Source: Clostridia bacterium (GTDB lineage Bacteria; Bacillota; Clostridia; Christensenellales; UBA1242). Taken from it: 34,540 nucleotides of DNA. The notes beneath the pieces are model-generated. The model saw only the letters and a program-made list of their open reading frames with translations, had not been told where the DNA came from and did not search any database. The position numbers were made by a program, and so were the translations under genes. Of this stretch, positions 9,537 to 33,757 are shown in pieces. The stretch lies in assembly GCA_017456465.1 (NCBI GenBank), contig JAFTJJ010000014.1, forward strand, positions 1 to 34,540. Direction: 5' to 3'. Positions within the stretch are counted from its first letter, which is position 1. Every line of letters starts with the position of its first letter.

Positions 9537-9550
9537 TTGCAAAGACACAA

Positions 9551-9584: not shown

Positions 9585-9593
9585 GTTCACTAC

Positions 9594-9622: not shown

Positions 9623-9653
9623 ATTTATAATAAAAATATTGGGAGAAATTGAA

Positions 9654-10061: not shown

Positions 10062-10103
10062 AAGACAAGGCAGTCATCAATCAGCCATTAAAATCAATGG
10101 GAC

Positions 10104-10132
10104 TTGAAATATCTTACATTGTGTGATATAAT
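10104..10132 (+). promoter_or_regulatory. Extended -10 promoter (duplicated promoter module, copy 2)
   Basis: TTGAAA (10104-10109), 17-nt spacer, TGaTATAAT (10124-10132). Confidence 0.65.
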
Positions 10133-10170
10133 ATATAATAATAAAATTGTGATTCTTTTTGGGGGGAATT

Positions 10171-11229
10171 ATGATAAATTTAAACATGTTAACAGAAGAA
10201 AAACAAACAGCACTTCTTGAAAGAATTGATGCTCTTTCTGCTGAGATTGAATCTTTTCAAAGCTCTGGTGGAGACATTTATGATGAAAGAAGAAAATTGC
10301 CTTATTATGAACGCGTGCGTTCAATTGTGAGAAGTTTGAGAAAAGAACTTGGGGATGAAAATGTTTCATATGAGGATGTCTATGAACTTTGTGGGATCAA
10401 ATTCGACAGAGATTGGAACACTTTCATGACATGGATTGAAAGATTGGCGGAAACTGCCGATGAAGATGGGTTTGTTGATTCAATCAGGGATGACAAGGGT
10501 GCAAATGCGCTCTATAATGATCTTGCCTATTATGCCGAAAAATATGGAACAAGCAACTTCGATTTTCTTGTTTTGATGACACCGTTTTCATTGCGTGAAG
10601 CAATGGTGAACGTTGGTGACTATGATTCATACTTGAGGGGTCAACTTCGCGAGGCTTATTGCGACGGTGAGGCAGAAGGCATCAGACATGATGAACCTGC
10701 ACTATATGAAAAAATTCGACAGTCTCAAAAATACACACCGGGAGCAACTGGCAAAGACATGTTTGACAAATTTGATCTTGTGAATGAAAGAGTTCATGAA
10801 ACAAGAACGATTGACCAGCCAAAGCAAGCGTCAGAAATCATTGAAAGACTTGAACAGCTTTATCCATCGCATGTGGTTGGAAGACTCATTGAAGATGACA
10901 AAAAAACTTATTATGACGTTGTCAGAATCAGCAGAAATGAAGGGAAAAATCCAAAAGCTTGGCTTGAATCACATGGTTTTGATTATCCATCTGGAATCAC
11001 AAACACACATCCACAAACAAGAACAAAAATCGACACAGCAAAACGCGCTGAGATGCTTCGAGGAATGAAGGCTGAAATCATGAAAGAGTTCAATCTTGAA
11101 GGTGCTGATGACATTGACATCTATCACGCAAATCTTGAAGCGACAAAACGCGTGATTGAAAAAGTTAATCAAATGTATGCGACCAAGGAAAATTCGGAAA
11201 CATTGCAGGGGGAAGAAAAAAATGATTGA
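10171..11229 (+). CDS. Acidic hypothetical protein (352 aa)
   Basis: ATG 10171 follows GGGGGGA. The sequence looks helical and acidic and has no catalytic or NTP-binding motif. YYxxVR...G(F/I)(D/K)(Y/F) segments recur internally. Confidence 0.6.
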   Translation: MINLNMLTEEKQTALLERIDALSAEIESFQSSGGDIYDERRKLPYYERVRSIVRSLRKELGDENVSYEDVYELCGIKFDRDWNTFMTWIERLAETADEDGFVDSIRDDKGANALYNDLAYYAEKYGTSNFDFLVLMTPFSLREAMVNVGDYDSYLRGQLREAYCDGEAEGIRHDEPALYEKIRQSQKYTPGATGKDMFDKFDLVNERVHETRTIDQPKQASEIIERLEQLYPSHVVGRLIEDDKKTYYDVVRISRNEGKNPKAWLESHGFDYPSGITNTHPQTRTKIDTAKRAEMLRGMKAEIMKEFNLEGADDIDIYHANLEATKRVIEKVNQMYATKENSETLQGEEKND

Positions 11230-12304
11230 AATTCAAAGAGCACTTCCATCAAAATTTGGAAAGCGTGACCTCATGGGCAAAGACCACTGGCACACACTTG
11301 ACATTGATGAATACCGAATTGTTCAACCAACAATAATTTGCCTTGGCGGAAACGGAACAACTGATGACACACCTGAAACACAAGTTGGTGACAAACATCG
11401 TACAGGTTTGCAAAAAGCCAACGCGTTTTGCAAGCTTCTTGAGTCTCTTGTTGGACTCAAAATGGCTGGCAAAAACATATCTTCAACATACAGAGATGTT
11501 GAGGTTTTGGGTTTTTCTTATGGCAAAGATCGCATTTCTGACAGAACGGGCAATTTTTCAATCGGATATGTAAGAAAAATCGTAAACAATCTCTTGATGC
11601 CACTTTTCATGGATGAAAAACATGAACTTTTGCCTCCAATTGAATCGGCAAGAAATTTGTCACTCGTGACATTCTTCACTCATTGTCATGGATCAAGAGA
11701 ACTTGATCGAATCATGAAAATGCTTCATGATGAACTTGTCTACAAAGGATATTCTTCAGACACAGTGCAAGAAATTTTTTCTTACACCATGAACGTTGCT
11801 TATTGTCCACTTCCAGACGAAACATGGATTCCGACCATCAGGGTTGAAAGCATGACAGACAGTTTGAATGTTGGTCTTTCTGGCCTCTACAGAGATTATT
11901 ATGGCAAAAAGCTCAATGGAATTGATGTGAGATATGACAAGCCAAACTTCTCAAGAGGAAAGAAACTTCCTGATTGGATGAATCATCCTTACGCTGACAG
12001 AGTGACGATTTATACATCACGCATGGTCAACACAAAAGAAAACAGTGATCTAAGGAATCTCATTGATGAGCACACAGCATTCTTGCTTGGACGAAACGCA
12101 GATGACTGGTCAATCAAAACAAAAGCAACAAACCTTGATGCTGTGTCCCAAATGACAGCACTTGCTCTTGGTGAAAAAATTGCTTGCTCACTTCAAAATT
12201 ACAGAAAAGGCAGCGGTGATGTTATCAAAATTGAGGTGTCTCAAATTTATGACTATTGCAAAAACATTTTGGAGTGGTTTGATGAATCCGAACTCCAGTG
12301 TTAA
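11222..12304 (+). CDS. Hypothetical protein, possibly alpha/beta-hydrolase-like with a Cys nucleophile (360 aa)
   Basis: ATG 11222 follows GGGGGAAG and overlaps the upstream stop by 8 nt (ATGATTGA). Motif order is IICLGGNGT (oxyanion-loop-like), FFTHCHGS (small-x-Nu-x-small elbow with Cys), PLPDE, IDEHTAF. The functional call is speculative. Confidence 0.5.
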   Translation: MIEIQRALPSKFGKRDLMGKDHWHTLDIDEYRIVQPTIICLGGNGTTDDTPETQVGDKHRTGLQKANAFCKLLESLVGLKMAGKNISSTYRDVEVLGFSYGKDRISDRTGNFSIGYVRKIVNNLLMPLFMDEKHELLPPIESARNLSLVTFFTHCHGSRELDRIMKMLHDELVYKGYSSDTVQEIFSYTMNVAYCPLPDETWIPTIRVESMTDSLNVGLSGLYRDYYGKKLNGIDVRYDKPNFSRGKKLPDWMNHPYADRVTIYTSRMVNTKENSDLRNLIDEHTAFLLGRNADDWSIKTKATNLDAVSQMTALALGEKIACSLQNYRKGSGDVIKIEVSQIYDYCKNILEWFDESELQC

Positions 12305-12327
12305 AACAAACATAGGGAAATTTAGTT

Positions 12328-13431
12328 ATGCAACAAAAAAACATACAAGCGCTGCGTGCTGAACATGAACGCAGAGAAGTTGAATATGCAAGGTCAATGC
12401 AGAGGGTTTTCCCACCTGAACTTTTTGATGCAGTGAAGTCAAACATCGACAAACTTGAAAAACTGGGAGTTCAGGGTGAATTCAAAAGAGACTTTGAAAT
12501 CAAGGTTTCAGATCTCGAATGGGTCATGGGTGATTTTTTGACTCGCGCTGTGATCAATGAAGACTATGCAGGAAAACTTGGGAGCGTGCTCAATGGAACA
12601 AATCCAAACCTTGACATTGAAAGAATCACATCCATCAAACACCCTGAGTTTTCCAAAGCGGGATTGGATGAAAATCTGGCAACAAGGACAAATCCGAATG
12701 GAAAGGAAGAACTCATAAAACTTTCAAAAAGTCGTGTTGTGTTTCCACTTGCCAAAAGAAAACAAAAGGATGTTTTGACAACAAACTTTGAATGCCTTGC
12801 AATATCGATTCACGAAAGCGGACACGCGGTAGCAGAAAGAAACATTTCCGGAAAACCACTCCAAATGAAATGCGAAGAAATCGGTGAGATTGAAAGCATG
12901 GTGATTGAACGACTCTTTATGTTCCATATGTGCATGAGTCAAACAAACATGAACAGTCACTTCATGAACAAATGGCATCAACCATTTGCAGACGGGGCTG
13001 TGGGGGATGGCATTCTCAAAAAGGCATATTTGGATCATTTGCTTGAATCAAACAAAGGGCTTCTGCATCGCCTTGAAAAGATTACTGATGCAAATCATTG
13101 TTCTGTTTTTGGATCTGACCATGAAGCATCAAAACAATATGCCGCAAGGTATGTTTTTGGCGAAATTGTCTCAACATTGTTTTTGACTGAATATGTCTTG
13201 AATCCAAGTGAGGCGATGGAAAACCTTAACAATTTTGTCAAACACAATCATGAGATCACAAAATTTGGTGATGTGGCTGAAATGCTGCTTCCTCAAACTC
13301 TTGAAAAATTGAGAGCAAAACCTGAAAATCAGGGAAAAGGTTGGCATGAACTTGTCATCAAAAGATACATTGATCTTTCAAGCGTATTGGCTGATGAAAA
13401 AATCGTTGATGATTATGATGAAAAATTTTAA
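12328..13431 (+). CDS. Putative zinc metallopeptidase (HExxH...E, gluzincin-like), 367 aa
   Basis: AISIHESGHAVAE is followed about 25 residues later by GEIESMVIE. This spacing resembles M3/M32-type third-ligand Glu motifs. There is no signal peptide or TM segment. Confidence 0.6.
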   Translation: MQQKNIQALRAEHERREVEYARSMQRVFPPELFDAVKSNIDKLEKLGVQGEFKRDFEIKVSDLEWVMGDFLTRAVINEDYAGKLGSVLNGTNPNLDIERITSIKHPEFSKAGLDENLATRTNPNGKEELIKLSKSRVVFPLAKRKQKDVLTTNFECLAISIHESGHAVAERNISGKPLQMKCEEIGEIESMVIERLFMFHMCMSQTNMNSHFMNKWHQPFADGAVGDGILKKAYLDHLLESNKGLLHRLEKITDANHCSVFGSDHEASKQYAARYVFGEIVSTLFLTEYVLNPSEAMENLNNFVKHNHEITKFGDVAEMLLPQTLEKLRAKPENQGKGWHELVIKRYIDLSSVLADEKIVDDYDEKF

Positions 13432-13759: not shown

Positions 13760-14557
13760 ATGCTTTTCGACACGTTTCACATTTGTTACATAATTGTGTC
13801 AGCCTTGATAACAACTGGGCTTTTGATTGCATTCAAATATCTTTGCAAAACACAAAAAAGCAAAGATGTCACACTCAAAATCATTGCGATCTTTGTGGTT
13901 CTCATTCACTACAGTGAACTTTGGGTGAATTATCTTTCTAATGGTTACACAACAGTTGAGTCTCCGCTTTTGTTTCCGATTTATCCGTGCAATGTGATGA
14001 TGTGGCTCTTGCTTCTCACATCATACATTTCAAAAAAAGACACAATGTTTTATCGCATACTCACAGAGTTTGTTTCTCTTGCGGGAATTGTGTGCGCTGC
14101 CGCTGGAATTCTATTCAACTTCAATTACAACAACTGTGGGCTTGATTCATATGGAATCTTCAGTGGACTTTTTTCGCACAGTGTGATGTTTCTTGGCTGC
14201 ATTTATCTTTTAAGTGTTGCGAAAGTGAAAATCAGAATGTTCAATGTCGTCAGTGTTGTGTGTGGACTTCTGTTTTTCCTTGTTGATGGAGTGGTCATCA
14301 ACACAATTTTCAATCTTGCAGGACTCGATCCAGTGAACTCAATGTTTCTCATTGAGCCTCCGTTTGAGAACATGCCTTGGCTCAACACTTTGACCATCGG
14401 GATTGTTGCAATTGTTCTGGTTTTCATAATTGGAGCAATTGGTGAAGCTGTGTCACTTCCAAAAGAAGAAAGATGGCACCATAAACTTGCGGTTCGCTTC
14501 AAAGCCAAAAAAGAACAAACAAAAAATCAAAATATAAATCAAGAAACAAAAGAATAA
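13760..14557 (+). CDS. Polytopic membrane protein, YwaF/TMEM164-like family (paralogue of 852..1643)
   Basis: 265 aa with AAAGGAG upstream. It has a similar TM layout, with FPIYPCN at the position of LPLFLCS and a conserved His (LFSHSVMF compared with ITHAISGF). Confidence 0.6.
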   Translation: MLFDTFHICYIIVSALITTGLLIAFKYLCKTQKSKDVTLKIIAIFVVLIHYSELWVNYLSNGYTTVESPLLFPIYPCNVMMWLLLLTSYISKKDTMFYRILTEFVSLAGIVCAAAGILFNFNYNNCGLDSYGIFSGLFSHSVMFLGCIYLLSVAKVKIRMFNVVSVVCGLLFFLVDGVVINTIFNLAGLDPVNSMFLIEPPFENMPWLNTLTIGIVAIVLVFIIGAIGEAVSLPKEERWHHKLAVRFKAKKEQTKNQNINQETKE

Positions 14558-23143: not shown

Positions 23144-25075
23144 ATGAAAATTCAACTCAGAGACGAAACAAGAGAATTTGAAAAAGGAACAACAATCTTG
23201 GAAATTGCTTCAAGCATTTCAGAAGGGCTTGCACGCGTTGCAGTGGCTGGCCGTGTGGATGGCGTTCTTACTGATCTCAGTGTTGCACTGGAAGATGATT
23301 GTGCGCTTGAAATCGTGACACAAAAAGATCCTGAGGCAAAACAAATTTTGAGACACACAGCGGCTCATGTTTTGGCACAAGCAGTCAAAACAATTTATCC
23401 AACCGCAAAACTCTCAATTGGGCCAGCAACAGAAGACGGTTTTTATTATGACTTTGATTTCAAAACTCCAATCACAGTTGATGATCTTCCAAAGATTGAA
23501 GCTGAAATGAAAAAAATCATCAAAGCAAACTTCGAAATCAAGAGAAATGTTGTCACAAAAAAACAAGCATTGAAAAGAGCCAAGGATGAGGGCGAAACTT
23601 TCAAGATTCAACTCATTGGTGACATTCCTGATGATGAAACAGTGACTGAATATACTCAAGGCGACTTCACCGATGTGTGTCGTGGACCACACATGAGAAG
23701 CACAGGAATGGTTAAAGCGTTCAAGCTCACAAGAATTGCGGGTGCTTATTTCAAGGGCGACAGCAAAAACAAAATGCTCACACGTATTTATGGCGTTGCA
23801 TTTGACAAAAAGAGTGAGATGGACGAGTACTTCGTGCGACAAGAAGAGGCAATGAAGAGGGATCACAACAAACTCGGACGTGAACTTGAAATCTTCACAA
23901 CTGTGGATTACATCGGCCAAGGCCTCCCAATTCTTCTCCCAAAGGGCACAGCGATTGTTCAAACAATGCAAAGATTCGTTGAAGATGAAGAAGCAAAGCG
24001 CGGATGGGTGAGAACAAAAACACCACTCATGGCAAAAAGCGACCTTTACAAGATTTCTGGTCACTGGGATCACTACAAAGATGGAATGTTCGTTCTTGGT
24101 GATGAAAAAGAAGACAAAGAAGTGTTTGCGCTTCGCCCAATGACATGCCCATTCCAATATCAAGCATATTTGAACAGAGCAAGAAGCTACAAAGATCTTC
24201 CAATGCGTCTTGCAGAAACATCAACACTCTTCCGTAATGAATCAAGTGGTGAAATGCATGGACTCATTCGTGTTCGTCAGTTCACAATTTCTGAAGGTCA
24301 CTTGATGTGCACTCCAGAACAACTTGAAAGCGAGTTTAAGGGGTGCTTGGAACTTGCAATTTTCATGCTCAAAACAATGGGACTTTATGAAGATGCTTCT
24401 TACAGATTCTCTCAGTGGGATCCAAATGACAGAGACAAATACATTGGAACAGTTGAACAATGGGAAGAAGCTCAAGGCAAAATGAAAACAATTCTTGACA
24501 ATCTTGGAATCCCATATAAGGTTGGTGTGGGTGAAGCTGCATTCTATGGTCCAAAACTTGACATTCAAATCAAAAATGTTTGGGGCAAAGAGGACACATT
24601 GATCACAATCCAAATCGACCAAATGCTTGCTGAAAAGTTTGGCATGGAATACACCGACAAAGATGGCAACAAGAAAAATCCTTACATCATTCACAGAACA
24701 AGCATTGGTTGCTATGAAAGAACACTCGCATACCTCATTGAAAAATATGCCGGTGCATTCCCACTTTGGCTTGCTCCTGTGCAACTCAAAGTCATCAATG
24801 TCTCAGAAAAGAGTGAAGACTATGCAAGAGAAGTGTCTCAAAAACTTGCTCTTCATGGTTACAGAATTGAAAACGATTTCAGAAGTGAAAAAGTTGGTTA
24901 CAAAATCAGACAAGCTCAGCTTGAAAAAGTTCCATACATGATGGTTCTTGGAGAAAATGAAATTGCTGCTGGAACAGTAACTTTGAGAAAAAGAAATGGG
25001 GAAGAGATCAGAGACCTTTCAATTGAACAAGTCGTTGAAATCTTCAACAAGGAAATCGAAGAAAAAATTAAATAA
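23144..25075 (+). CDS. thrS: Threonine--tRNA ligase
   Basis: 643 aa. N-terminal TGS domain, an editing domain (HTAAHVLA), a class II core (FRNESSGEMHGLIRVRQF, HRTSIGCYER) and a C-terminal anticodon-binding domain. Confidence 0.95.
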   Translation: MKIQLRDETREFEKGTTILEIASSISEGLARVAVAGRVDGVLTDLSVALEDDCALEIVTQKDPEAKQILRHTAAHVLAQAVKTIYPTAKLSIGPATEDGFYYDFDFKTPITVDDLPKIEAEMKKIIKANFEIKRNVVTKKQALKRAKDEGETFKIQLIGDIPDDETVTEYTQGDFTDVCRGPHMRSTGMVKAFKLTRIAGAYFKGDSKNKMLTRIYGVAFDKKSEMDEYFVRQEEAMKRDHNKLGRELEIFTTVDYIGQGLPILLPKGTAIVQTMQRFVEDEEAKRGWVRTKTPLMAKSDLYKISGHWDHYKDGMFVLGDEKEDKEVFALRPMTCPFQYQAYLNRARSYKDLPMRLAETSTLFRNESSGEMHGLIRVRQFTISEGHLMCTPEQLESEFKGCLELAIFMLKTMGLYEDASYRFSQWDPNDRDKYIGTVEQWEEAQGKMKTILDNLGIPYKVGVGEAAFYGPKLDIQIKNVWGKEDTLITIQIDQMLAEKFGMEYTDKDGNKKNPYIIHRTSIGCYERTLAYLIEKYAGAFPLWLAPVQLKVINVSEKSEDYAREVSQKLALHGYRIENDFRSEKVGYKIRQAQLEKVPYMMVLGENEIAAGTVTLRKRNGEEIRDLSIEQVVEIFNKEIEEKIK

Positions 25076-25080
25076 AACAC

Positions 25081-25109
25081 TTGACAAACATGTGTTTGTG
25101 TTATAAAAT
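25081..25109 (+). promoter_or_regulatory. Sigma-A promoter of the infC-rpmI-rplT operon
   Basis: TTGACA (25081-25086), 17-nt spacer, TAAAAT (25104-25109). An alternative is TGtTATAAA with a 15-nt spacer. Confidence 0.65.
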
Positions 25110-25114
25110 AACAT

Positions 25115-25280
25115 CGCTAATGCAAGAGAAAGACCACTTTCCGCCAATCGAATGAAAGATTTTTATTGGTAAAATATCTGAACTTCACAACAGTGCGACG
25201 CTGAAAGTCCTGAATTTCAGTCGTGTGCTTTTGAGATTATAGATATGGTGAGTGGACAAGAGCGTTCACTCACTTTTTTT
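25115..25280 (+). promoter_or_regulatory. Ribosomal protein L20 leader (transcription attenuator) of the infC operon
   Basis: A ~230-nt untranslated leader ending in the strong hairpin GTGAGTGGAC/GTTCACTCAC (25248-25273) plus T7, upstream of infC. Position and architecture match the Firmicute L20 leader. I have not verified the fold. Confidence 0.6.
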
Positions 25281-25348
25281 GATTGCATGGCAAAACAAAA
25301 TGTATGAAGTCAAAAACGATAAAAATGACTTCAACCTAGGGGGATACG

Positions 25349-25870
25349 ATTATAAAACAAGAACATCAACTCAACCACGAAATCACTGACAGAGAAGTTA
25401 TGGTGATTTCAGCCACCGGAGAAAAACTTGGGATCATGAGCGCAGCAGAAGCCAACAGACTCGCAGACGAAGCTGAACTTGATCTTGTGAAAATTTCTCC
25501 AAATGCAAATCCTGCTGTTTGCAAGATCATGGATTATGGCAAATTCATGTTTGACAAAGCAAAACGTGAAAAAGAAGCAAAGAAAAACCAAAAGGTTGTT
25601 GAACTCAAAGAAGTTCAGCTTTCAATGACAATTGAACTTCATGACATGCAAATCAAGGCAAAAAATGCAAGCAAATTCTTGACTCAGGGCAACAAGGTCA
25701 AAGTTGCACTCAGAATGAGAGGACGCCAACAAGCTTACTTTAGCAAAGGCATTGAAATTGTGAAAGAATTTTGTGCAATGCTTGAAAATGAGGGAGTCAT
25801 GGACAAAGAACCAAAAGTTGAAGGCAGAAATGTTGTTGTTATTTTGAACCCAAAAGGAAATAAAAAATAG
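25349..25870 (+). CDS. infC: Translation initiation factor IF-3, non-ATG (ATT) start
   Basis: The frame is open from 25340. The conserved IF3 N-terminus (NHEITDREVMVISATGEKLGI) lies upstream of the first ATG (25400). ATT 25349 (or ATA 25352) follows AGGGGGA (25338-25344). Confidence 0.85.
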   Translation: MIKQEHQLNHEITDREVMVISATGEKLGIMSAAEANRLADEAELDLVKISPNANPAVCKIMDYGKFMFDKAKREKEAKKNQKVVELKEVQLSMTIELHDMQIKAKNASKFLTQGNKVKVALRMRGRQQAYFSKGIEIVKEFCAMLENEGVMDKEPKVEGRNVVVILNPKGNKK

Positions 25871-25881
25871 GAGAAAAGGTT

Positions 25882-26073
25882 ATGCCAAAACAAAGATCAA
25901 ACAGTGCCGCAAAGAAAAGATTCGTAGTGCTCAAGAGCGGCAAAATCAAAAGAGCAAAACAAAACAAAAGACACATTTTGACAAAGAAAGAGACTGGTAG
26001 GAAGAGAGGCCTCCGTAAGACTGCTTACGTTTCAGCAACTCAAGAAAAAACTATCAAGAAACTCGTAGGTTAA
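25882..26073 (+). CDS. rpmI: 50S ribosomal protein L35
   Basis: 63 aa, basic, starting [14 protein letters not shown]. It lies between infC and rplT. Confidence 0.9.
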
Positions 26074-26086
26074 GGGGGAGACGGTA

Positions 26087-26452
26087 ATGAGAATTAAAAG
26101 AGGCGTTAATGCGCACAAGAAAAGAGTAAAAGTTTTTAAAGCTGCCAAAGGTTACAGAGGCGCAAAGAGCAAACTCTTCAGAGTTGCTCGTGAAGCTGTG
26201 ATGAAAAGTGGCAACTACGCATACATTGGCCGCAGACTCAAAAAGCGTGATTTCAGACAACTTTGGATTGCAAGAATCAATGCAGGAGCAAGAGAATATG
26301 GCTTGTCTTACAGCAAGATGATGCATGGTTTGAAACTCGCTGGAATCGAACTCAACAGAAAAGTGCTTTCTGACATGGCAATTGCAGACAAAGCAGGATT
26401 TGAAAAAGTTGCACTTGCAGCAAAAGAAGCACTTGAAAAAGCTGCAAAGTAA
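26087..26452 (+). CDS. rplT: 50S ribosomal protein L20
   Basis: 121 aa, with [23 protein letters not shown] and [14 protein letters not shown]. Confidence 0.95.
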
Positions 26453-26469
26453 TTTGTTAAAATCATTAA

Positions 26470-26500
26470 AAAGATGTGAGAAATCGCATCTTTTTATTTT
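26470..26500 (+). terminator. Rho-independent terminator
   Basis: AAAGATGTG pairs with CGCATCTTT (one G-U pair), followed by TTTTTATTTTTT. Confidence 0.65.
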
Positions 26501-26573
26501 TTGATTTTATTCTTGATATTGTAATTGCTTTTGTGTTATTATATTGATGATAACATAAAAAGAGGGAATGTTC

Positions 26574-27824
26574 ATGAATTTTAAAGAAGCCTTGATTGAT
26601 TACGGATTTTCTCAGGAAGATGTGGATTACATTTGCACAAAAACGAACACGCGCGGGGTTGAAAGAGTTCAAAAAACACTTCGCGATTATGAAATTGAAC
26701 TTGGGATCAGCAAAAGTGAACTCAAAAAAATGGTGCTCGCTGCACCAGGACTTCTTGGCTTTGTTGTCATTCCAGAAAACCAAGACATCGCGAGCGACAC
26801 TTCAGTCAGAACCAAAATTGCAGATTACATGCAACTGTTGAACCTTTCAAAATTTGAAGTAATTAACATCATCAAAAAATTCCCACAATATTTGGGATTT
26901 GACACAAAATCAAATGCCCCAACATCATTAAAATCAAAAATTACAAATCTTCAATGCTTGCTTGGATTCAACAATGAAGAAGTTGTGAGATTTGTAAAAA
27001 AATATCCGCAAATATTGGCTCAAAGCATTGATCCGACTTCAAACTCGTCATTAAATTCAAAAATTGAAGCATATGCAAAACTCTTGAATGTTCCAATCAG
27101 TTCAGTTGTTGCAATGGTGCGAAAACTCCCACAAATGCTGACCCTTGACATAAATTCAACCTCAAAAACTGCTGTCAAAACAAAAATTGAAGATTATGCA
27201 AAATTGCTTGAAATTTCAAAATTCAAAGTCACAGCTCTCATTGCAAAAACTCCTGAAATGCTCACATATGACGTTTCTTCAAATGCAGAGACATCGATCA
27301 AAAGCAAACTTGAATTTTACAAAAGATCACTTGGTGTTGATTCAAGTGTTCTTGGACAAATGGTCGCAAAATGTCCAGTGCTGCTTGGACTTGACACATC
27401 CTCAAATTCAAAAACATCAGTGAGATCAAAACTTGAAGTTTTTGGAGATTTTTTAACAACTGAAGACATCATAAACAATCCAATAATTCTCACTTTCCCA
27501 GCCATGCGAACAAAACTTCGATTCATGATTCTTGCAAATTGTGGAATTGATCGAGACAAAATTGTTTCAAATCAAAACCTTATGACCTCAGAGCAGGTCA
27601 TGTGGGGCAAGGTGGGACTTTGCAAAGCAAAAGAAATTGATTTTAAATATGTAACATATCCAGGAAAGTTTTTCATGGACAGATATGGTTTTGCTTTGAG
27701 TGATCTTGCTGAATTGTTTCCACTTCAAAATGCAGATATTTCAAATATTGAAGCGGAATATAATTCAAGATTTAACAAAAAACTAAACATTACTCAAGCA
27801 GAAATCGAGGAAATTTTGAAGTAG
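26574..27824 (+). CDS. mTERF-like helical-repeat protein (416 aa)
   Basis: Six to seven ~41-residue repeats with a Pro-x-(I/L/M)-L core: AAPGLLGF, KKFPQYLGFD, KKYPQILAQS, RKLPQMLTLD, AKTPEMLTYD, AKCPVLLGLD, NNPIILTFP. Each is followed by SN..TS.K.K(I/L) and LLG/LLN turns. ATG 26574 lies 7 nt after GAGGG. ATG 26568 is an alternative start. Confidence 0.6.
   Translation: MNFKEALIDYGFSQEDVDYICTKTNTRGVERVQKTLRDYEIELGISKSELKKMVLAAPGLLGFVVIPENQDIASDTSVRTKIADYMQLLNLSKFEVINIIKKFPQYLGFDTKSNAPTSLKSKITNLQCLLGFNNEEVVRFVKKYPQILAQSIDPTSNSSLNSKIEAYAKLLNVPISSVVAMVRKLPQMLTLDINSTSKTAVKTKIEDYAKLLEISKFKVTALIAKTPEMLTYDVSSNAETSIKSKLEFYKRSLGVDSSVLGQMVAKCPVLLGLDTSSNSKTSVRSKLEVFGDFLTTEDIINNPIILTFPAMRTKLRFMILANCGIDRDKIVSNQNLMTSEQVMWGKVGLCKAKEIDFKYVTYPGKFFMDRYGFALSDLAELFPLQNADISNIEAEYNSRFNKKLNITQAEIEEILK
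26706..27455 (+). repeat. In-frame tandem ~123-bp (41-codon) diverged repeats inside the mTERF-like CDS
   Basis: One example is AAAATTGAAGCATATGCAAAACTCTTGAATGTTCC (~27060) against AAAATTGAAGATTATGCAAAATTGCTTGAAATTTC (~27183), 123 nt apart. The protein-level periodicity is described under the CDS. The boundaries are approximate. Confidence 0.6.
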
Positions 27825-27834
27825 GGAACAAAGA

Positions 27835-28119
27835 ATGGATTTGAAGTTGAAAAAGTTTTTAAAGAAATTAAATCTTGACGATGACGAAATAAACAATCTC
27901 ACCACTGTTTGTTCTGGACTTGAAATCACAAGCGAAGGCAGAGCAAAAGAAAACGTGAGAATATTGATCGACTCGGGTTTCCCGCTTTGTGACGTTTCTT
28001 TTGTCGTTTGTGCAAACCCTGCTTTTTTGTGTAATGATCCAATAGACACAAAAAGTTCGATTGAGTCCATTGATGGGGATGTTGAACAAGCAATCAAAAA
28101 TGATCCATATATTTTGTAA
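27835..28119 (+). CDS. Small mTERF-like repeat protein (94 aa)
   Basis: It starts 10 nt after the previous stop. The same repeat grammar appears: LKKLNLDDDEINNLTTVCSGLEITS, LIDSGFPLCDVSFVVCANPAFLCNDP. Confidence 0.5.
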   Translation: MDLKLKKFLKKLNLDDDEINNLTTVCSGLEITSEGRAKENVRILIDSGFPLCDVSFVVCANPAFLCNDPIDTKSSIESIDGDVEQAIKNDPYIL

Positions 28120-28134
28120 GGATGGGGAAATCAA

Positions 28135-28899
28135 ATGGAAAAAATCACAAGCTCAAACAACAATCGTGTTGTTATGTTTTCAAAACTAAACCAAAAAAAG
28201 TATAGAGATGAGTATGGCTTGTTTTTGCTTGAAAATTACAAACTCATTGCAGAGGTTGTAAAACGCGGTGATGAAATTGAACAACTCTTGATTGATGAAT
28301 CAAAACAAGACAAATTTGAGAAAATAATTCAAAAACTATATGAACAAACAATCATACTCCCATCCAATATTTTTGCAAAAATTAGTGAGACTGTAACAAG
28401 TCAGGGAATCATCGCTGTGATGAAAAAAAGAGACGAGACAAGCATTGCTTCGCTTTGTGGAAGAATTTTGGTTTTGGACAGAATTCAAGATGCTGGAAAT
28501 GTCGGAACACTGCTCAGATCTGCTCAAGGCTTTGGCTTTCAAAATGTGATCATGATTGACTCGGCTGATGAGTACAGCTCGAAGGTAATCAGAAGTTCAG
28601 GCGGAAGCATTTTTCATCTCAACATCGCACACACTTCAGAAAAAGAACTTTTGAATCTCATTAAACGCAGCGATTTGGCTGTTTTCACAGCTGACATGAA
28701 TGGATCATCACTTTATGAAACCCATGATTTTCCTCAAAATATGATGCTCATTGTTGGAAACGAGGGACAAGGCGTTTCAACTGCTTTGGAAGAAGCATCA
28801 ACAAACAACATCATGATCCCGATGGAAGAAGGACTCGAATCCTTGAATGCCGGAGTTTCAGGCTCAATCATCATGAGTTACATTCACTCGAAAAAATAA
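28135..28899 (+). CDS. TrmH/SpoU-family RNA 2'-O-methyltransferase (RlmB/YsgA-like)
   Basis: 254 aa. An N-terminal substrate-binding domain is followed by the SPOUT motifs LDRIQDAGNVGTLLRSA, LIVGNEGQGVS and IPMEEGLESLNAGVSGSI. Confidence 0.85.
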   Translation: MEKITSSNNNRVVMFSKLNQKKYRDEYGLFLLENYKLIAEVVKRGDEIEQLLIDESKQDKFEKIIQKLYEQTIILPSNIFAKISETVTSQGIIAVMKKRDETSIASLCGRILVLDRIQDAGNVGTLLRSAQGFGFQNVIMIDSADEYSSKVIRSSGGSIFHLNIAHTSEKELLNLIKRSDLAVFTADMNGSSLYETHDFPQNMMLIVGNEGQGVSTALEEASTNNIMIPMEEGLESLNAGVSGSIIMSYIHSKK

Positions 28900-28977: not shown

Positions 28978-29706
28978 ATGAGCGGACATTCAAAATGGCA
29001 CAATATTCAAGCAACAAAAAACAAGGCAGATGCAGCTCGTGGAAAAATATTCACAAAAATCGGACGCGAAATTGCTGTTGCTGTCAAACTTGGTGGCGCA
29101 GATCCAAACACAAACAGCAAACTTTATGATGTGATCCAAAAGGCAAAACAAAACAACATGCCAAATGACAACATTCAGCGTTCAATCAAAAAGGCAGCAG
29201 GTGAAACTGATGCAACAAACTATGCATTAATCACATATGAAGGTTATGGCGCACATGGCGTGGCATTCATTGTTGAGTGCCTCACAGACAACAAAAACAG
29301 AACAGCATCTGATGTTCGTCACCTTTTTGATAAATTCGGTGGGAGTTTGGGAACTACTGGAAGTGTGACATTCATGTTCAATTACAACGGTGTCATCGTT
29401 CTTCCAAAAAAAGATGGAATGACAGAAGATGATGTGATGATGGTGGCTCTAGACGCTGGCGCCGATGACATTCAAACTGAAGACGAGGCTTTTGTGGTTT
29501 ACACCGCACCTGACATGCTTCATGCTTGCGTGAAAGCGTTTGAAGATGCAGGATTTGAAATTGCTTCAAGCGGCCAAGAATACATTCCAACAAACACTGT
29601 GGAACTCGATGAGGCGGCTTCTGCATCGATTCAAAAACTCACAGACGCACTTGAAGATCTTGATGATGTTCAAAATGTTTATAACAACGCAGATTTGGCA
29701 GAATAA
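28978..29706 (+). CDS. yebC: YebC/PmpR family DNA-binding regulator / translation-associated factor
   Basis: The N-terminus is MSGHSKWHNIQATKNKADAARGKIFTKIGREI, at 242 aa. AGGAG lies upstream. Confidence 0.9.
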   Translation: MSGHSKWHNIQATKNKADAARGKIFTKIGREIAVAVKLGGADPNTNSKLYDVIQKAKQNNMPNDNIQRSIKKAAGETDATNYALITYEGYGAHGVAFIVECLTDNKNRTASDVRHLFDKFGGSLGTTGSVTFMFNYNGVIVLPKKDGMTEDDVMMVALDAGADDIQTEDEAFVVYTAPDMLHACVKAFEDAGFEIASSGQEYIPTNTVELDEAASASIQKLTDALEDLDDVQNVYNNADLAE

Positions 29707-29712
29707 TTTTTT

Positions 29713-29741
29713 TTAGCACGGCATTTTGCTGTGCTAATTTT
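29713..29741 (+). terminator. Weak terminator-like hairpin
   Basis: TTAGCAC (29713-29719) pairs with GTGCTAA (29731-29737), then TTTT. Confidence 0.4.
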
Positions 29742-29757
29742 AATAATTGGAGGGAAA

Positions 29758-30441
29758 ATGAAACTATTTTTATGTGGTGGTGGATGCGGCAATCAAATCA
29801 CAGAAGCTTTGCAACAATTTGAAAAATTGTTGGACAAAACAAAACCAGTGTTGTATGTTCCGCTTGCAATGGAAGAAAAAATGTATGACAGTTGCAGCGA
29901 GTGGTTTTCAGGTGAATGCAAGAATTTTGGGTGTGAAAAGTTTGAAATGGTGAGATCGTCCCTTGAACTTTCAGAGAAGAATTTTGACAAATACGCTGCA
30001 ATTTTCATTGGTGGTGGAAACACCTTCAAACTTTTGAATGAAATCAATCAAAATGGTAACCGCGAAAAAATTATGAATTATCTTGAAAATGGTGGAGTTG
30101 TCTTTGGCGGAAGTGCAGGTGCAATCATTTTTGGCAAAGACATCAACACTTGCTTGCTCGATGATGGCAATGAGGTGGGACTTGAATGCACTACTGGCTT
30201 AAATCTGCTAAATGACTATTCAATCTTGTGCCACTTGAATGAAAAGTCTCTCAAAGACAATATGGAACACTTAAACAATCTCTCAAACAATGACAAAGTA
30301 ATTTACATGCCAGAAGAGAATGTGATTTTTCTGGATAACAATTCCACATGTTTGATTGGAAAATCAGGTTGTGTAATCTTTGAAAAAGGTGAGCATTTTG
30401 CGCGCCGACCTGAAGATTTCAAAAATGATATCAAAAAGTAA
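29758..30441 (+). CDS. Peptidase S51 (dipeptidase E-like) / class I glutamine amidotransferase-like protein
   Basis: ATG 29758 follows GGAGGG. The motifs IFIGGGNTFKLL and FGGSAGAIIFG (nucleophile Ser) are typical of S51. Confidence 0.7.
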   Translation: MKLFLCGGGCGNQITEALQQFEKLLDKTKPVLYVPLAMEEKMYDSCSEWFSGECKNFGCEKFEMVRSSLELSEKNFDKYAAIFIGGGNTFKLLNEINQNGNREKIMNYLENGGVVFGGSAGAIIFGKDINTCLLDDGNEVGLECTTGLNLLNDYSILCHLNEKSLKDNMEHLNNLSNNDKVIYMPEENVIFLDNNSTCLIGKSGCVIFEKGEHFARRPEDFKNDIKK

Positions 30442-30451
30442 TGGAAGGACT

Positions 30452-30724
30452 ATGAACAAAAAACTCAAATATAGGTTCAAAATTTATTGCAGTGATGGAA
30501 CGTCAAAATTTATTGGTGGACGTGGTGCAACTCCAGAGTCTTTGAAGTATGATTTCGATGGAATGGTCTCATGGGATGAATATGAACGAATTTCTGATGA
30601 TGAAACAATGGGAACAGCAGAGATTCTGAACCTCGCAAAAACTCTTTATTCAAAAAAACACTCATTTTCAAGAATTGAAATTGTGAACACTGAGACTGGT
30701 GAAGTGGTGGATTTCATCAATTAA
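30452..30724 (+). CDS. Hypothetical protein (90 aa)
   Basis: ATG 30452 follows GGAAGGA. The ORF-track 30380 start overlaps the previous CDS. No motifs recognised. Confidence 0.5.
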   Translation: MNKKLKYRFKIYCSDGTSKFIGGRGATPESLKYDFDGMVSWDEYERISDDETMGTAEILNLAKTLYSKKHSFSRIEIVNTETGEVVDFIN

Positions 30725-30736
30725 AGCAAATCAATA

Positions 30737-30767
30737 AACGCGGAGCAAAACACTGCCCGCGTTTTTT
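30737..30767 (+). terminator. Rho-independent terminator
   Basis: AACGCGG (30737-30743) pairs with CCGCGTT (30757-30763), then a T-run. Confidence 0.75.
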
Positions 30768-30779
30768 AATTGTGGCATA

Positions 30780-30808
30780 TTGACATTTGAGATTTCATAA
30801 GATATAAT
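30780..30808 (+). promoter_or_regulatory. Consensus sigma-A promoter
   Basis: TTGACA (30780-30785), 17-nt spacer, TATAAT (30803-30808). Confidence 0.7.
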
Positions 30809-30840
30809 TATTTTCGCAAAAACAAAAGGAGACAAGTATT

Positions 30841-31362
30841 ATGGAATTAGATTATGGAAAAATTGAAGTAATTGAAGATTTGTTGTTTTCAAGTGATGAT
30901 ATTGATATGATTGATCTCGTAAAGACATATCTCAAACAATCAAAAAAAGCAACTGAAGAGCAAATTGAAACACTTGACCTTGAATGTGTTGATGATGAAA
31001 CTGGTTACATCATGTCAATTCAGGGTGAAAGAGATATTGAATTTTTGGGATTCTCAGATGAATTTGTCACAACATATGATGGACCAACCGGCGACACTGC
31101 AACGCTTGACCCAATTTGGATTAATATTGTTGCCAAAGAGCTTAACAAAATAAATGGCTTCAAGGCAAATCAATACCTTTTTGGTGTTTACAAATTGGTC
31201 GACGACATGGCTGCTGGGGCAGACGGTGCAAAAGTTTCAAGCGATCAAGCCAGTGCCATGAAGGAAAAACTCTTTGCAATTGAGGCAGGTTGTTTCACTC
31301 CAGATCATCAAATCATGACTGAAGCAGAGAAAATTGCATTCATGTGTCAAAATGGAGATTAG
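30841..31362 (+). CDS. Highly acidic hypothetical protein (173 aa)
   Basis: GGAG lies 9 nt upstream. It is very rich in D/E and forms a monocistronic unit with its own promoter and terminator. Confidence 0.6.
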   Translation: MELDYGKIEVIEDLLFSSDDIDMIDLVKTYLKQSKKATEEQIETLDLECVDDETGYIMSIQGERDIEFLGFSDEFVTTYDGPTGDTATLDPIWINIVAKELNKINGFKANQYLFGVYKLVDDMAAGADGAKVSSDQASAMKEKLFAIEAGCFTPDHQIMTEAEKIAFMCQNGD

Positions 31363-31386
31363 GTTTTGAAAAAAAAATAAATTTTG

Positions 31387-31414
31387 GTGTGGGGGATTTC
31401 CTCCACACTTTTTA
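31387..31414 (+). terminator. Rho-independent terminator
   Basis: GTGTGGGGG pairs with CCTCCACAC (9 bp, one G-U pair) around a 4-nt loop, followed by T5. Confidence 0.75.
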
Positions 31415-31430
31415 TTTTATCTTGATTTCA

Positions 31431-31459
31431 TTGACAAATTTTTAAATTAACCTTATGAT
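31431..31459 (+). promoter_or_regulatory. Sigma-A promoter of the ruvCAB-queA cluster
   Basis: TTGACA (31431-31436), 17-nt spacer, TATGAT (31454-31459). Confidence 0.65.
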
Positions 31460-31494
31460 ATATTATGTAAAATAATATAGGAGTGAAAGCAGGC

Positions 31495-32100
31495 GTGATT
31501 ATTCTTGGCATTGACCCAGGCTATGGAATTGTTGGTTACGGTGTGATTGAAAAAGACACGAGAGGCAAGTGCCACATGATTTCATATGGTGCAATCAAAA
31601 CACCAACTGATGAAACATTCCCAACAAGACTTGCAATTATTGAAGAGAGAATAAAATTTCTCATCGATAAATACAAACCTGATGCTGTTGCAGTTGAAGA
31701 ATTGTTTTTCAACACCAATATCACAACAGGAATCAAAGTTGCTGAGGCAAGAGGAGTCATCGTTTGCACAGCCGTCAAAGAGTGTGCAGGCCTTTTTGAA
31801 TATACTCCAAGTCAAATCAAACTTGCAATCACGGGGTCAGGAAAGGCAGAAAAACATCAAGTACAATACATGACAAAAATGATGCTTGGGCTTTCTGAAA
31901 TTCCAAAACCAGATGATGCAGCGGACGCACTTGCTGTCGCGCTCACTCACGCACAAACAAACAACCAAATCAAAAACAACAGCATGATGCAGTTTGAAAA
32001 GCTCAAATCTGGCAGAAAAAAGACAGTGAACAGTTTTGAAAAGCTCTTACTTGAACAAAATGCAAAGAAAAAATCTAACATAAACAATTGGAAGTCATAA
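31495..32100 (+). CDS. ruvC: Crossover junction endodeoxyribonuclease RuvC
   Basis: The motifs are ILGIDPGYG, AVEELFF and KPDDAADALAVALTHA. GTG 31495 is preferred because GTG 31483 overlaps the AGGAG SD. There is a Lys-rich C-terminal tail. Confidence 0.85.
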   Translation: MIILGIDPGYGIVGYGVIEKDTRGKCHMISYGAIKTPTDETFPTRLAIIEERIKFLIDKYKPDAVAVEELFFNTNITTGIKVAEARGVIVCTAVKECAGLFEYTPSQIKLAITGSGKAEKHQVQYMTKMMLGLSEIPKPDDAADALAVALTHAQTNNQIKNNSMMQFEKLKSGRKKTVNSFEKLLLEQNAKKKSNINNWKS

Positions 32101-32110
32101 GGGGAAAGAT

Positions 32111-32722
32111 ATGATATACAAAATAGTTGGGACAGTTGAACAAATTGATGAAAACACAGTTTCAGTGAGCACTGATGCAGGTGTTGGCTTTGAAGTGATT
32201 TGCACGCAGGCTGATGCAATCTCTCTTGCAAGCGAAAAGGGAAACCAGACGGTTTTCACATACCTTCAAGTTCGTGAGGACGCAATGGTACTTTATGGCT
32301 TCAAATCTCTCGAGGTTAAAGCAATGTTCTTGAAGCTCATCACAATTTCTGGAATTGGTCCAAAAATGGCAATTTCAATCCTTTCTGAAACAACGCCTGA
32401 GGATTTGTCTTACTCAATTGTGAACTCTGATGTGAAGGCACTCTCAAAGGTTAAGGGACTTGGAAAGAAAACAGCAGAGAGAATAATTTTGGAACTCAAA
32501 GAAAAGGTTTCTGCAATTGCCACAGACATCAAGAAAACAAACAAGACAGCCACTGTTGAGACTGGCAAACTTTCATCAGAGCAAGAAGACAGTTTGATTG
32601 CTCTTTGCAGTTTGGGACTTGGCAAAACTCAAGCCACAAAACTCGTGATGGAACTTTCAACTCCAGACATGAAGGCTGAAGATATTGTTGCAATTTGCAT
32701 CAAAAACATGGGGGCAAGATAA
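32111..32722 (+). CDS. ruvA: Holliday junction branch migration complex subunit RuvA
   Basis: 203 aa. OB-fold N-terminus, HhH motifs (LITISGIGPKMA, LSKVKGLGKKTAERI) and a C-terminal domain III. Confidence 0.9.
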   Translation: MIYKIVGTVEQIDENTVSVSTDAGVGFEVICTQADAISLASEKGNQTVFTYLQVREDAMVLYGFKSLEVKAMFLKLITISGIGPKMAISILSETTPEDLSYSIVNSDVKALSKVKGLGKKTAERIILELKEKVSAIATDIKKTNKTATVETGKLSSEQEDSLIALCSLGLGKTQATKLVMELSTPDMKAEDIVAICIKNMGAR

Positions 32723-32725
32723 TTT

Positions 32726-33757
32726 ATGTGGGAAGATTTTGACAACTCAGAGGAATTTGAACAGCGGTTCATATCAAGTGAAAGACTCACAGGTGAGTCA
32801 GAAGAAGAAAATATTCTTCGTCCAAAGACCATGGATGATTATGTTGGTCAAGAAAAAGTTAAGGAAAACCTCAAGGTTTACATTGGCGCAGCAAAAAAAC
32901 GCGGCGAAGCACTTGATCATGTCCTTTTGTATGGACCTCCTGGACTTGGAAAAACAACACTTTCAAGCATCATTGCAAATGAACTTGGTGTTGGACTCAA
33001 AATGACAAGTGGTCCAGCGATTGAAAAGGCAGGCGACCTTGCTGGACTTCTCACAAATCTTTCTGAAGGAGATGTGCTTTTCATTGATGAAATCCACAGA
33101 ATGAATCATTCAGTTGAAGAAATTTTGTATCCAGCAATGGAGGACTACGCACTTGACTTTTTGATTGGCAAAGGTCCATCTGCCCGAAGCATGAGACTCA
33201 CTCTTCCAAAGTTCACACTTGTTGGCGCAACAACAAAGGCGGGAATGCTGACTGGTCCTCTTCGCGATCGTTTTGGAGTCATTGCAAGACTTGAACTCTA
33301 TTCACCAGAAGAACTCGACAAAATTGTAAGGCGTTCTGCCAAACTTCTTGGAATGGACATTGATTCAGATGCTTCAATTGAAATTGCAAGCAGATCAAGA
33401 GGAACACCAAGAATCGCAAACAGAATTTTGAAGCGTGTTCGTGACTTTGCAGATGTTGAAAACAGTGGGGTCATTGACCTTAAAATCGCTCGTCACGCTC
33501 TTGCACGCATGGAAATTGATGAACTTGGACTTGACATGGTTGACCGCAGAATTTTGGAAACAATCATTGACAAATTTGGTGGTGGACCAGTTGGTCTTGA
33601 CACATTGGCAGCATCAACAGGAGAAGAAACCACAACAATTGAAGATGTTTATGAACCATATCTGTTGCAACTTGGTTTCATTCAAAGAACACCAAGGGGA
33701 AGAGTTGCCACCGCTGCGGCTTATGAACATTTGGACAGAAAATTCACAGGAAAATAA
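32726..33757 (+). CDS. ruvB: Holliday junction DNA helicase RuvB
   Basis: Walker A is GPPGLGKTT, Walker B is LFIDEIHR, with the sensor and Arg finger in [21 protein letters not shown]. Confidence 0.95.

Follow-up and report, generated by a model that had tools for sequence, protein, structure and literature searches.

An accessory two-gene cassette of Clostridia encodes a predicted mTERF solenoid and a conserved acidic mini-mTERF partner

What are two adjacent genes for repeat proteins doing between a ribosomal protein gene and an RNA methyltransferase gene? The question is raised by contig JAFTJJ010000014.1 of a Clostridia bacterium metagenome-assembled genome (MAG; GCA_017456465.1), whose whole 34,540 nucleotides are referred to here as the window. 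Between rplT and a gene of the SpoU/TrmH family, it carries a gene for a 416 amino acid protein and, directly downstream, a gene for a 94 amino acid protein. An initial annotation, made from the letters of the sequence, had assigned both products to the mTERF family and had proposed a bacterial analogue of the human partnership between MTERF4 and the rRNA methyltransferase NSUN4. We find that both products almost certainly have the mTERF fold and belong to the mTERF family, as judged from sequence profiles and structural models, and that the large protein has a conserved partner in the 94 amino acid acidic protein. The SpoU gene and rplT, which lie on either side, are bystanders of a self-contained, fast-evolving and accessory two-gene cassette, inserted in or retained at the rplT-SpoU spacer of a ruminant-gut Clostridia genome. 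The parts of the locus are as follows, with the two flanking genes, which are outside the module, given last.

26480 to 28134, forward strand: the two-gene cassette (~1.65 kb), delimited by blastn of the cassette-free loci L022, L023 and L026 against the window.
26467 to 26496, forward strand: terminator-like hairpin (13 pairs, GAAA loop, then a T-run) just 3' of the rplT stop.
26513 to 26542, forward strand: promoter-like site of the sigma-70 type (TTGATA, 18 nt, TATTAT, with TG upstream; 10/12 matches).
26574 to 27824, forward strand: large mTERF-fold gene, predicted as such (416 amino acids, pI 8.8; Pfam, period, AlphaFold2, Foldseek and family alignment).
26697 to 27449, forward strand: repeat array within the large gene (amino acids 42-292).
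27564 to 27821, forward strand: non-repeat C-terminal family domain (domain hidden Markov model [HMM] and family alignments).
27835 to 28119, forward strand: small acidic gene, a predicted mini-mTERF (94 amino acids, pI 4.4, net charge -7.5).
28135 to 28899, forward strand: flank, gene of a SPOUT-class RNA 2'-O-methyltransferase (Pfam and NCBIfam; RlmB/YsgA-like).
26087 to 26452, forward strand: flank, rplT (L20; Pfam Ribosomal_L20), the last gene of thrS-infC-rpmI-rplT.

Is the large protein an mTERF? The open reading frames (ORFs) lie where the initial annotation had placed them, the small one starting 10 nt past the large stop and the SpoU gene 15 nt past the small stop, and all of the peptides that it had quoted are present (KKFPQYLGFD, KKYPQILAQS, RKLPQMLTLD, AKTPEMLTYD, AKCPVLLGLD, NNPIILTFP and VCANPAFLCNDP). 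Alternative starts for the large ORF, which stops at 27824, are found at 26568 and 26574; we prefer 26574 because it has GAGGG 7 nt upstream and agrees with the 416 amino acid NCBI call, which is entered as [quoted passage not shown] The period of about 41 residues ascribed to this protein is well supported: the mean BLOSUM62 self-score is 1.09 at offset 41 and 0.83 at offset 82, as against a top maximum of -0.29 in 200 shuffled controls (mean -0.47, standard deviation 0.07). The protein had been described as built almost entirely of repeats. This is right for amino acids ~42-292, which contain one 46-residue and five 41-residue units, and for a degenerate terminal unit that runs to ~330 (amino acids 293-330; NPIILTFPAMRTKLRFMIL), but not for the N-terminal cap (amino acids 1-41) or for the C-terminal domain (amino acids ~331-416), a non-repeat region of ~85 residues with the pattern LMTSEQ...WxK...YPL...IExEY.... 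The consensus of the unit is (L/I)(L/F)xLsxEEvxKmIKxxPxLLxYDxxSxxxTSVKSKIxxYKx, with proline at position 17 in 6/6 repeats of the window. Among 105 units of the family, L20, D23, T30, S31, K35 and Y39 are 70-80% conserved (L20, 75%); P17 served as the search anchor for these units, so that its invariance there is by construction.

The Pfam mTERF profile (PF02536) matches the large protein with an E-value of 6.2e-23 and 81.6 bits, far over the gathering cut-off of 23.1. The AlphaFold2 model, for which a 27-sequence family alignment was the input, has a predicted local distance difference test score (pLDDT) of 92.6 and a predicted template modeling score of 0.82, and in it each unit has, by DSSP assignment, three helices (~12, ~10 and ~5 residues) and then a loop of 10 residues. 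When the model was compared with the PDB by Foldseek, places 1-17 were all taken by MTERF1, MTERF3, MTERF4 or mitoribosomal mTERF; the mitoribosomal mTERF-like chains 6z1p_BY and 7o9k are among the structural matches. The best matches are DNA-bound MTERF1 (3MVB, 3MVA, 3N6S) and MTERF3 (3M66), with E-values of ~1e-6 to 1e-5 (top, 1.1e-6) and target-normalized template modeling (TM) scores up to 0.66. The first match outside the family is a TALE protein (6JW4) at rank 18 (E-value 0.05, TM 0.25). We considered a TPR, HEAT, PPR or TALE fold for the large protein and rejected it, the Foldseek matches other than mTERFs having E-values of at least 0.05. Two features depart from a strict definition of the eukaryotic family. 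The unit has 41 residues in place of ~30-35; it amounts to a 36-residue unit plus a 5-residue loop, a difference in length and not in fold. Moreover, the gene is not eukaryotic, nucleus-encoded and organelle-targeted; it lies beside the bacterial genes thrS-infC-rpmI-rplT on a contig of a Clostridia MAG, and because of this operon context we rejected eukaryotic contamination as an explanation.

How widely is this family distributed? A word-indexed protein search gave 3 matches with the single protein and 5 with a profile, while an exhaustive HMMER search of 1.84 billion representatives gave 325 proteins with E <= 1e-3, including 27 with E <= 1e-30. Family members range from ~3 to ~10 units (277-574 amino acids), and the best ~35 relatives (280-440 residues) have the 41-residue period and the C-terminal domain in common. 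All of the named bacterial relatives among those looked up are "Clostridia bacterium" MAG proteins. The HMM of the C-terminal domain matches 94 of the 151 best relatives, across periods of 35/36, 39 and 41 residues, and 0 of the eukaryote-type relatives. The 57 relatives without the domain are long and have periods mostly of 36-37 residues; the named ones among them are dinoflagellate (Symbiodinium) mTERFs. Comparison of the 36-residue unit (PxLLxxSEExIKxKxxFY) with the 41-residue unit (PxLLxYDxxSxxxTSxKxKxxFY) points to an expansion of the loop by 5 residues, and the two units are plainly homologous in sequence. A scan of GTDB genomes with the C-terminal alignment returned 2 loci, a number that is limited by the search pattern and is no measure of family frequency, and scans of JGI metagenomes with the large C-terminus and the small protein gave no matches. 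As a separate observation, the nearest relatives without the bacterial C-terminal domain (among P0039-P0141) are, insofar as they have names, Symbiodinium mTERFs labeled MTERF4 and MTERF6, at E-values of ~1e-10 to 1e-22.

The initial annotation had called bacterial mTERFs essentially uncharacterized, a statement that is outdated. Prokaryotic mTERF-like proteins from ruminant-gut Clostridia MAGs were described in 2024 under the name "pTERF" (Nucleic Acids Res 2024; PMC11417379). pTERF1 (MBQ3414883.1) binds double-stranded DNA (dsDNA) with ACTNNNAGTC at a Kd of 1.87 nM, as measured by electrophoretic mobility shift assay, biolayer interferometry and a reporter assay, and pTERF2, studied with the same kinds of assays, recognizes a different motif (PMC11417379). 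The pTERF family has 3-11 tandem three-helix units, with 19 NCBI and 27 MGnify homologs listed, and its predicted targets are enriched for RNA-metabolism Gene Ontology (GO) terms (PMC11417379). The screen behind that work took in repeats with a period of 15-35 residues and a minimum of 6 units, with pTERF1 in the 35-residue class (TR_35); because it stopped at period 35, proteins with a 41-residue period lie outside the primary screen. The study treats the pTERFs as isolated DNA-binding repeat proteins and does not mention gene neighborhood, a small partner, cassette polymorphism or evolutionary rate (PMC11417379). No other papers treating pTERF turned up in the literature searched, and mTERFs are still widely said to be absent from prokaryotes, for example in a 2026 paper (PMC12977773).

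Judging by sequence, the large protein most likely belongs to the pTERF superfamily as a 41-residue-period variant. The pTERFs come from MAGs labeled "Clostridia bacterium" in the ruminant-gut dataset of Xie et al. 2021, and the name of the window contig carries XIEF21; homologs on both sides are known from MAGs only. Pfam/SMART mTERF motifs are annotated in the pTERFs as well, and their high-confidence AlphaFold2 solenoids resemble MTERF1. The units are strictly tandem in both, the large protein having six clean ones and the degenerate terminal one, and the relatives with a 35/36-residue period possess the same terminal unit and C-terminal domain as the large protein. The difference is in the period, 35 residues in pTERF1 and 41 in the large protein, by way of the 5-residue loop expansion.

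We turn to the small protein, to which the same repeat grammar had been attributed. It is indeed mTERF-like by profile and fold, but the spacing of its motifs is ~35 residues and not 41 (CPGL26-29, NPAF61-64, DPYI90-93), and it is without the basic T-S-x-K-x-K loop of the large protein. A Pfam search, which the initial annotation had proposed for both products, supports the large one and leaves the small one (12.6 bits, E-value 0.066) under the cut-off of 23.1. The top Pfam match is nevertheless mTERF in 10/11 small homologs (best E-value 1.4e-4), and hhalign of the small family against the large family gives an E-value of 8.4e-5 over ~2.5 repeats, with the junction prolines in register. The AlphaFold2 model (pLDDT 94.7) has the three-helix/proline pattern of the mTERF motif, and the top 17 Foldseek matches in the PDB are all mTERFs (query-normalized TM 0.61-0.81, root mean square deviation 2.1-3.6 Å). 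By predicted fold and by profile, the 94 amino acid product is a free-standing mini-mTERF, though below the Pfam cut-off. The family call therefore holds for both products, through Pfam for the large one and through AlphaFold and Foldseek for both, and structure prediction returned the mTERF solenoid in each case, with other repeat classes for the large one only at E-values of at least 0.05. That the 94 amino acid ORF is non-functional, or that the mTERF match is a compositional or repeat artifact, is an explanation to which we give practically no credence: its support is the score under the Pfam cut-off, and against it the small protein is exactly 94 residues long in 10 of the 11 homologs, with 15 invariant columns, the dN (nonsynonymous divergence) of the small gene is 0.20 where dS (synonymous divergence) is saturated, the small model has high confidence and consistently mTERF matches, and the large protein is far over the cut-off with a high-confidence model of the same fold.

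Are the two genes found together elsewhere? We gathered genomic contexts from homologs of both the large and the small protein and classed every ORF by HMMs built here. Among 10 distinct large-family loci with the downstream region available, 8 have the pair, with the small gene directly 3' of the large one, and 2 have the large gene alone. The pairs occupy five unrelated contexts:

rplT / SpoU: window, L018 and L021 (the contig of L008 ends before the small gene).
ftsW ... murA, in the dcw cluster: L003/4 and L010/11.
Upstream of RNase R-SmpB: L001 and L015/16.
After an Fe-ADH gene: L012/13.
Between ACPS and IleRS: L014.

The same picture is obtained from the other direction. With small-protein homologs as the starting point, every one looked up adjoins a large gene and lies downstream of it, and the genes 5' of the small homologs are strong members of the large family (E-values 1e-85 to 1e-217). 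At the junctions the genes are separated by 3-19 nt or overlap by 1, 8 or 16 nt, an arrangement that suggests translational coupling. The charges are opposite across the pairs: large proteins have a pI mostly of 8.3-9.3, and small ones a pI of 4.05-4.5 and a net charge of -6.5 to -15.5. Pairwise divergences of the large C-terminus and of the small protein are correlated (Spearman 0.63, p-value 3e-4).

Some loci have other arrangements. At L005-L007 (P0015) a solo large gene lies 3' of a PDDEXK_4 nuclease-family gene and 5' of a HAD hydrolase gene, and at L002 (P0017) a solo large gene precedes a 747 amino acid ORF. In L001 (GTDB MAG JAZOOJ010000007) there are tandem large paralogs at 4708-5718 and 5728-6717, which are 43% identical and are followed by one small gene; the syntenic locus L015 has one large gene only.

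The relation to the SpoU gene is quite different. No SpoU homolog is found in the 9 other distinct large-family loci; the linkage occurs only in the window and its near-identical strains. Elsewhere, rplT and infC stand beside a large gene in L008 alone; this is the closest relative, with 65% identity in the large protein. A survey of relatives for a conserved linkage downstream of rplT, suggested in the initial annotation, found none, an outcome that the annotation had itself named as refuting its model. In L022, L023 and L026 the L35 protein is identical to that of the window and rpmI+rplT is 93.7-94.2% identical, and there a terminator hairpin comes after rplT, and the SpoU gene (77% protein identity to that of the window) begins 91 nt past the rplT stop, with no mTERF genes. 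Homology of these three loci to the window stops at 26479 and restarts at 28135, which is the SpoU ATG, so that the cassette stands in place of a spacer of 62 nt. Since the cassette-free relatives keep rplT-SpoU, this order is background synteny and the pair is a cassette that is present or absent. The lineages compared for gain versus loss of the cassette (n = 3) are about equidistant.

The cassette appears to have signals of its own. The terminator-like hairpin at 26467-26496, which was also recovered as inverted repeat I2 (92% complementary), sets rplT apart from it; at the equivalent position the cassette-free relatives have another hairpin with a T-run. The site at 26513-26542 is the putative promoter of the cassette and is conserved in L008: the block 26506-26545 is almost invariant between the two, as against 65% identity in the large protein. 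An imperfect inverted repeat at 26529-26560, with a 4-nt spacer between 14-nt arms that are 86% complementary, overlaps the -10 element. We considered an operator role for it, which is doubtful, as the right arm is not conserved in L008. The terminator scan found no terminator-like site between the large, small and SpoU genes. The SpoU gene is probably co-transcribed with the cassette, as the initial annotation had it, but in this genome only. No integrase, transposase, direct repeats or target-site duplications were found at the cassette junctions, and no RNA family reached the Rfam gathering threshold anywhere in the window, the cassette and its surroundings included.

How does the cassette evolve? 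Between the window and L008, protein identity is 95% for L20, 98% for L35 and 90% for IF3, and only 65% for the large protein; dN is 0.007-0.067 in the flanking genes and 0.225 in the large gene, and omega (dN/dS) is 0.08-0.10 and 0.19, respectively. Between L001 and L015, where dS is saturated and dN alone is informative, identity is 93% for Fer4_12, 90% for RNase R and 96% for SmpB, compared with 45-48% for the large protein (either paralog) and 67% for the small one. Altogether, large-gene dN is ~3-30x that of the flanking genes. No positive selection is seen in gene-wide dN/dS; the omega of ~0.19, well below 1, indicates purifying selection over the whole gene, so that evolution is rapid but constrained. 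Over 5,953 nt, strain L018 and the window are nearly identical (99.95%), with 3 mismatches, of which 3/3 are in the module: at 26505, just 5' of the -35 element; at 27959, a missense change in the small gene; and at 26636, where TGC>TGA replaces Cys21 of the large protein by a stop codon. The Cys21 stop allele is shared by the independent assembly L021, in which gene callers restart the protein at Met53 (364 amino acids). A nonsense allele in two other assemblies means that circulating strains can do without the large gene or tolerate its truncation. We found no PADLOC-DB matches for the large, small and SpoU proteins, nothing significant in PHROGs, no tblastn matches in phage genomes and plasmids, and none in two viral-contig scans.

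What might the pair do? We lean, somewhat, toward a composite in which a DNA-binding solenoid is accompanied by a co-translated modulator in an accessory cassette. Taken separately, DNA is the likelier ligand of the large protein, by analogy with its characterized relatives, whereas modulation by the small protein is a tentative proposal, somewhat less likely than not. The large basic solenoid would wrap dsDNA and read a specific sequence as pTERF1, pTERF2 and human MTERF1 do. The conserved T30-S31-x-K33-x-K35 and other lysines would contact the DNA backbone, the variable repeat positions would set the specificity, and the large protein might serve as a site-specific transcription roadblock or regulator. 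The acidic mini-mTERF, lacking the basic loop and translationally coupled, would bind the large protein stoichiometrically and cap or occlude the solenoid, thereby tuning DNA binding. It is tempting to go further and to regard the pair as an obligate two-component system, with the mini-mTERF as dedicated co-translated inhibitor or cap ("anti-pTERF") that would gate DNA binding by a rapidly diversifying, sequence-reprogrammable solenoid, the cassette being a mobile or conflict-type accessory module of gut Clostridia and not a housekeeping regulator, but we consider this bolder version unlikely.

Two families of known solenoids bear on this proposal. Human MTERF1 (3MVA, 3MVB, 3N6S) and MTERF3 (3M66) are the best structural matches (probability 1.00, target TM 0.50-0.66) and share with the large protein the three-helix motif, the proline at the helix junction and the superhelical solenoid; MTERF1, which the large protein resembles by fold, is a sequence-specific dsDNA binder. 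The sequence identity is nonetheless 17-19%, the eukaryotic units are ~30-35 residues long and interspersed where those of the large protein are strictly tandem, 41 residues long and furnished with an extra 10-residue loop, and the C-terminal domain is confined to the bacterial family. The large gene, moreover, is bacterial and chromosomal, without organellar targeting, and we see no evidence in its product for the base-flipping residues of MTERF1. TALE and TALE-like proteins are also bacterial, with tandem helical repeats of ~33-41 residues, a DNA-wrapping solenoid (here predicted) and a specificity proposed to come from variable repeat positions. They belong, however, to another fold class with two helices per unit and not three, and for the large protein no repeat-variable-diresidue-type code is known and no secretion or effector context surrounds it.

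Several observations weigh against the composite of DNA-binding solenoid and modulator. Many eukaryotic mTERFs bind RNA. The large proteins carry a modest net charge, two of them being close to neutral. The small partner is absent at the L002 and L005-7 loci, and it is not needed for binding as such, since pTERF1 and pTERF2 bound DNA alone. The kinship with pTERF is drawn from the description in the paper and from the 35/36-period relatives that have the C-terminal domain. Finally, with the SpoU gene 15 nt past the small gene and no terminator in between, co-expression with the methyltransferase is real here, though not conserved.

This last point leads to the model of the initial annotation, in which the mTERF proteins would bind RNA as adaptors and bring in or position the SpoU/TrmH rRNA methyltransferase during ribosome assembly, in the way that MTERF4 does with NSUN4 (PDB 4FP9, 4FZV, 7O9K). 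The likeness lies in the mTERF fold, with weaker matches (E-values 6e-4 to 4e-2), and in an RNA methyltransferase gene directly downstream in one genome. The close spacing of the three genes, 10 and 15 nt with no terminator, fits it, as do the ranks of MTERF4 among the Foldseek matches (10-17 for the large protein, 2-6 for the small one), the translation-related contexts (rplT/SpoU, RNase R-SmpB, IleRS) and the RNA-metabolism GO enrichment of the predicted pTERF targets (PMC11417379). On the other side, no other pair locus has a SpoU homolog, close relatives have rplT-SpoU without the pair, and a nonsense allele of the large gene circulates with SpoU intact. DNA-bound MTERF1 and MTERF3 are better matches than MTERF4. 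The enzyme itself does not resemble NSUN4: Pfam finds a SpoU_methylase domain along with substrate-binding domains of the MRM3-like and SpoU types, NCBIfam gives RlmB as the top match, though under its cut-off, and the protein is of the SPOUT class with an RNA-binding domain of its own and not an NSUN m5C enzyme, which is another class of methyltransferase. In the bacterial loci, finally, what is conserved beside the large protein is an mTERF-like partner and not an enzyme, and the linkage with the methyltransferase, confined to the lineage of the window, is not conserved. The pair is very likely no adaptor for the SpoU enzyme, and the model as a whole, which the synteny contradicts, is highly improbable. 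We have removed the MTERF4-NSUN4 analogy, attractive but unsupported.

Alternatively, the large protein might be an RNA-binding factor for cellular RNAs, without any involvement of SpoU and with the small protein as co-factor, in the manner of mitoribosome-bound mTERFs and of plant mTERFs that work in intron splicing or RNA maturation. The mTERF fold does bind RNA in MTERF4 and several plant mTERFs (PMC4005652, PMC7913559), and the mitoribosomal chains 6z1p_BY and 7o9k are among the structural matches; but the only bacterial members assayed bind dsDNA with nanomolar affinity and sequence specificity (PMC11417379), the best structural matches are MTERF1-DNA complexes, and no Rfam element lies in or near the cassette, so we regard this as improbable. 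A shade less so is a conflict- or addiction-type module akin to a toxin-antidote or defense system, in which the solenoid would bind DNA or another polyanion harmfully or defensively and the co-translated acidic mini-mTERF would neutralize it until triggered. Such a module would be in keeping with the presence/absence polymorphism among ~93-94%-identical lineages, the five unrelated insertion contexts, a dN far over that of the flanks, the recurrent nonsense allele, the placing of 3/3 single-nucleotide changes of near-identical strains within the module, the tandem duplication of the large gene in L001, and overlapping, coupled genes of opposite charge. Yet PADLOC and PHROG matches are lacking, nothing was found on phages, plasmids or viral contigs, and the junctions carry neither an integrase or transposase nor flanking repeats. 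Within a lineage the surrounding gene order is stable (dcw cluster in L003/L010, RNase R-SmpB in L001/L015), an omega of ~0.19 speaks of ordinary purifying selection, some large genes have no small one, and the large-first order and the sizes are atypical for a type II toxin-antitoxin system. For these reasons such a module, too, seems unlikely to us.

The rest of the window contains some further features. In the interval 23144-26452, Rfam at the gathering threshold recognizes neither a T-box upstream of thrS nor an L20 leader upstream of infC. Between thrS and infC there is a strong terminator-like hairpin at 25247-25274 (11 pairs and a T-run) and an 11/12 promoter match at 25081-25109; the hairpin may be an unrecognized leader or attenuator variant. 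Six consecutive same-strand ORFs at 7989-13431 (344, 139, 140, 356, 382 and 367 amino acids) have no Pfam match at E <= 1e-4 and sit between an ABC-transporter pair and a TMEM164-family gene. The latter (13760-14557) and its membrane paralog at 852-1643 are less than 13 kb apart, and their family is named after a eukaryotic protein. Downstream of the SpoU gene, positions 28978-33757 contain a YebC/TACO1-family gene, a peptidase S51 gene, two small ORFs and then RuvC-RuvA-RuvB, a yebC-ruvCAB linkage that we take to resemble the E. coli operon. The small ORFs (30380-30724 and 30841-31362) have no Pfam matches; the second lies behind a perfect 12/12 sigma-70 consensus at 30780-30808.

What do these findings mean for the bacterial mTERFs? 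The family is broader than the 2024 screen, with subfamilies of 36-, 39- and 41-residue period and one C-terminal domain. With respect to the literature searched, the 41-residue-period subfamily and the C-terminal domain that unites the periods appear to be new, as do the presence/absence polymorphism and rapid divergence of the cassette, and the conserved 94 amino acid mini-mTERF partner appears to be undescribed. Most of the members examined are paired with a coupled acidic mini-mTERF, which provides a handle on the regulation and the in vivo function that were left open in 2024. That the cassette is accessory and fast-evolving speaks against a core role in ribosome biogenesis and for a role in diversifying specificity or in conflict. 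The partner could be a natural modulator for engineered pTERF programmable DNA binders, and, if the "anti-pTERF" version is true, the large protein would be the first mTERF protein regulated by an mTERF-derived partner, and the pair would provide a programmable DNA-binding scaffold with an on/off switch of natural origin.

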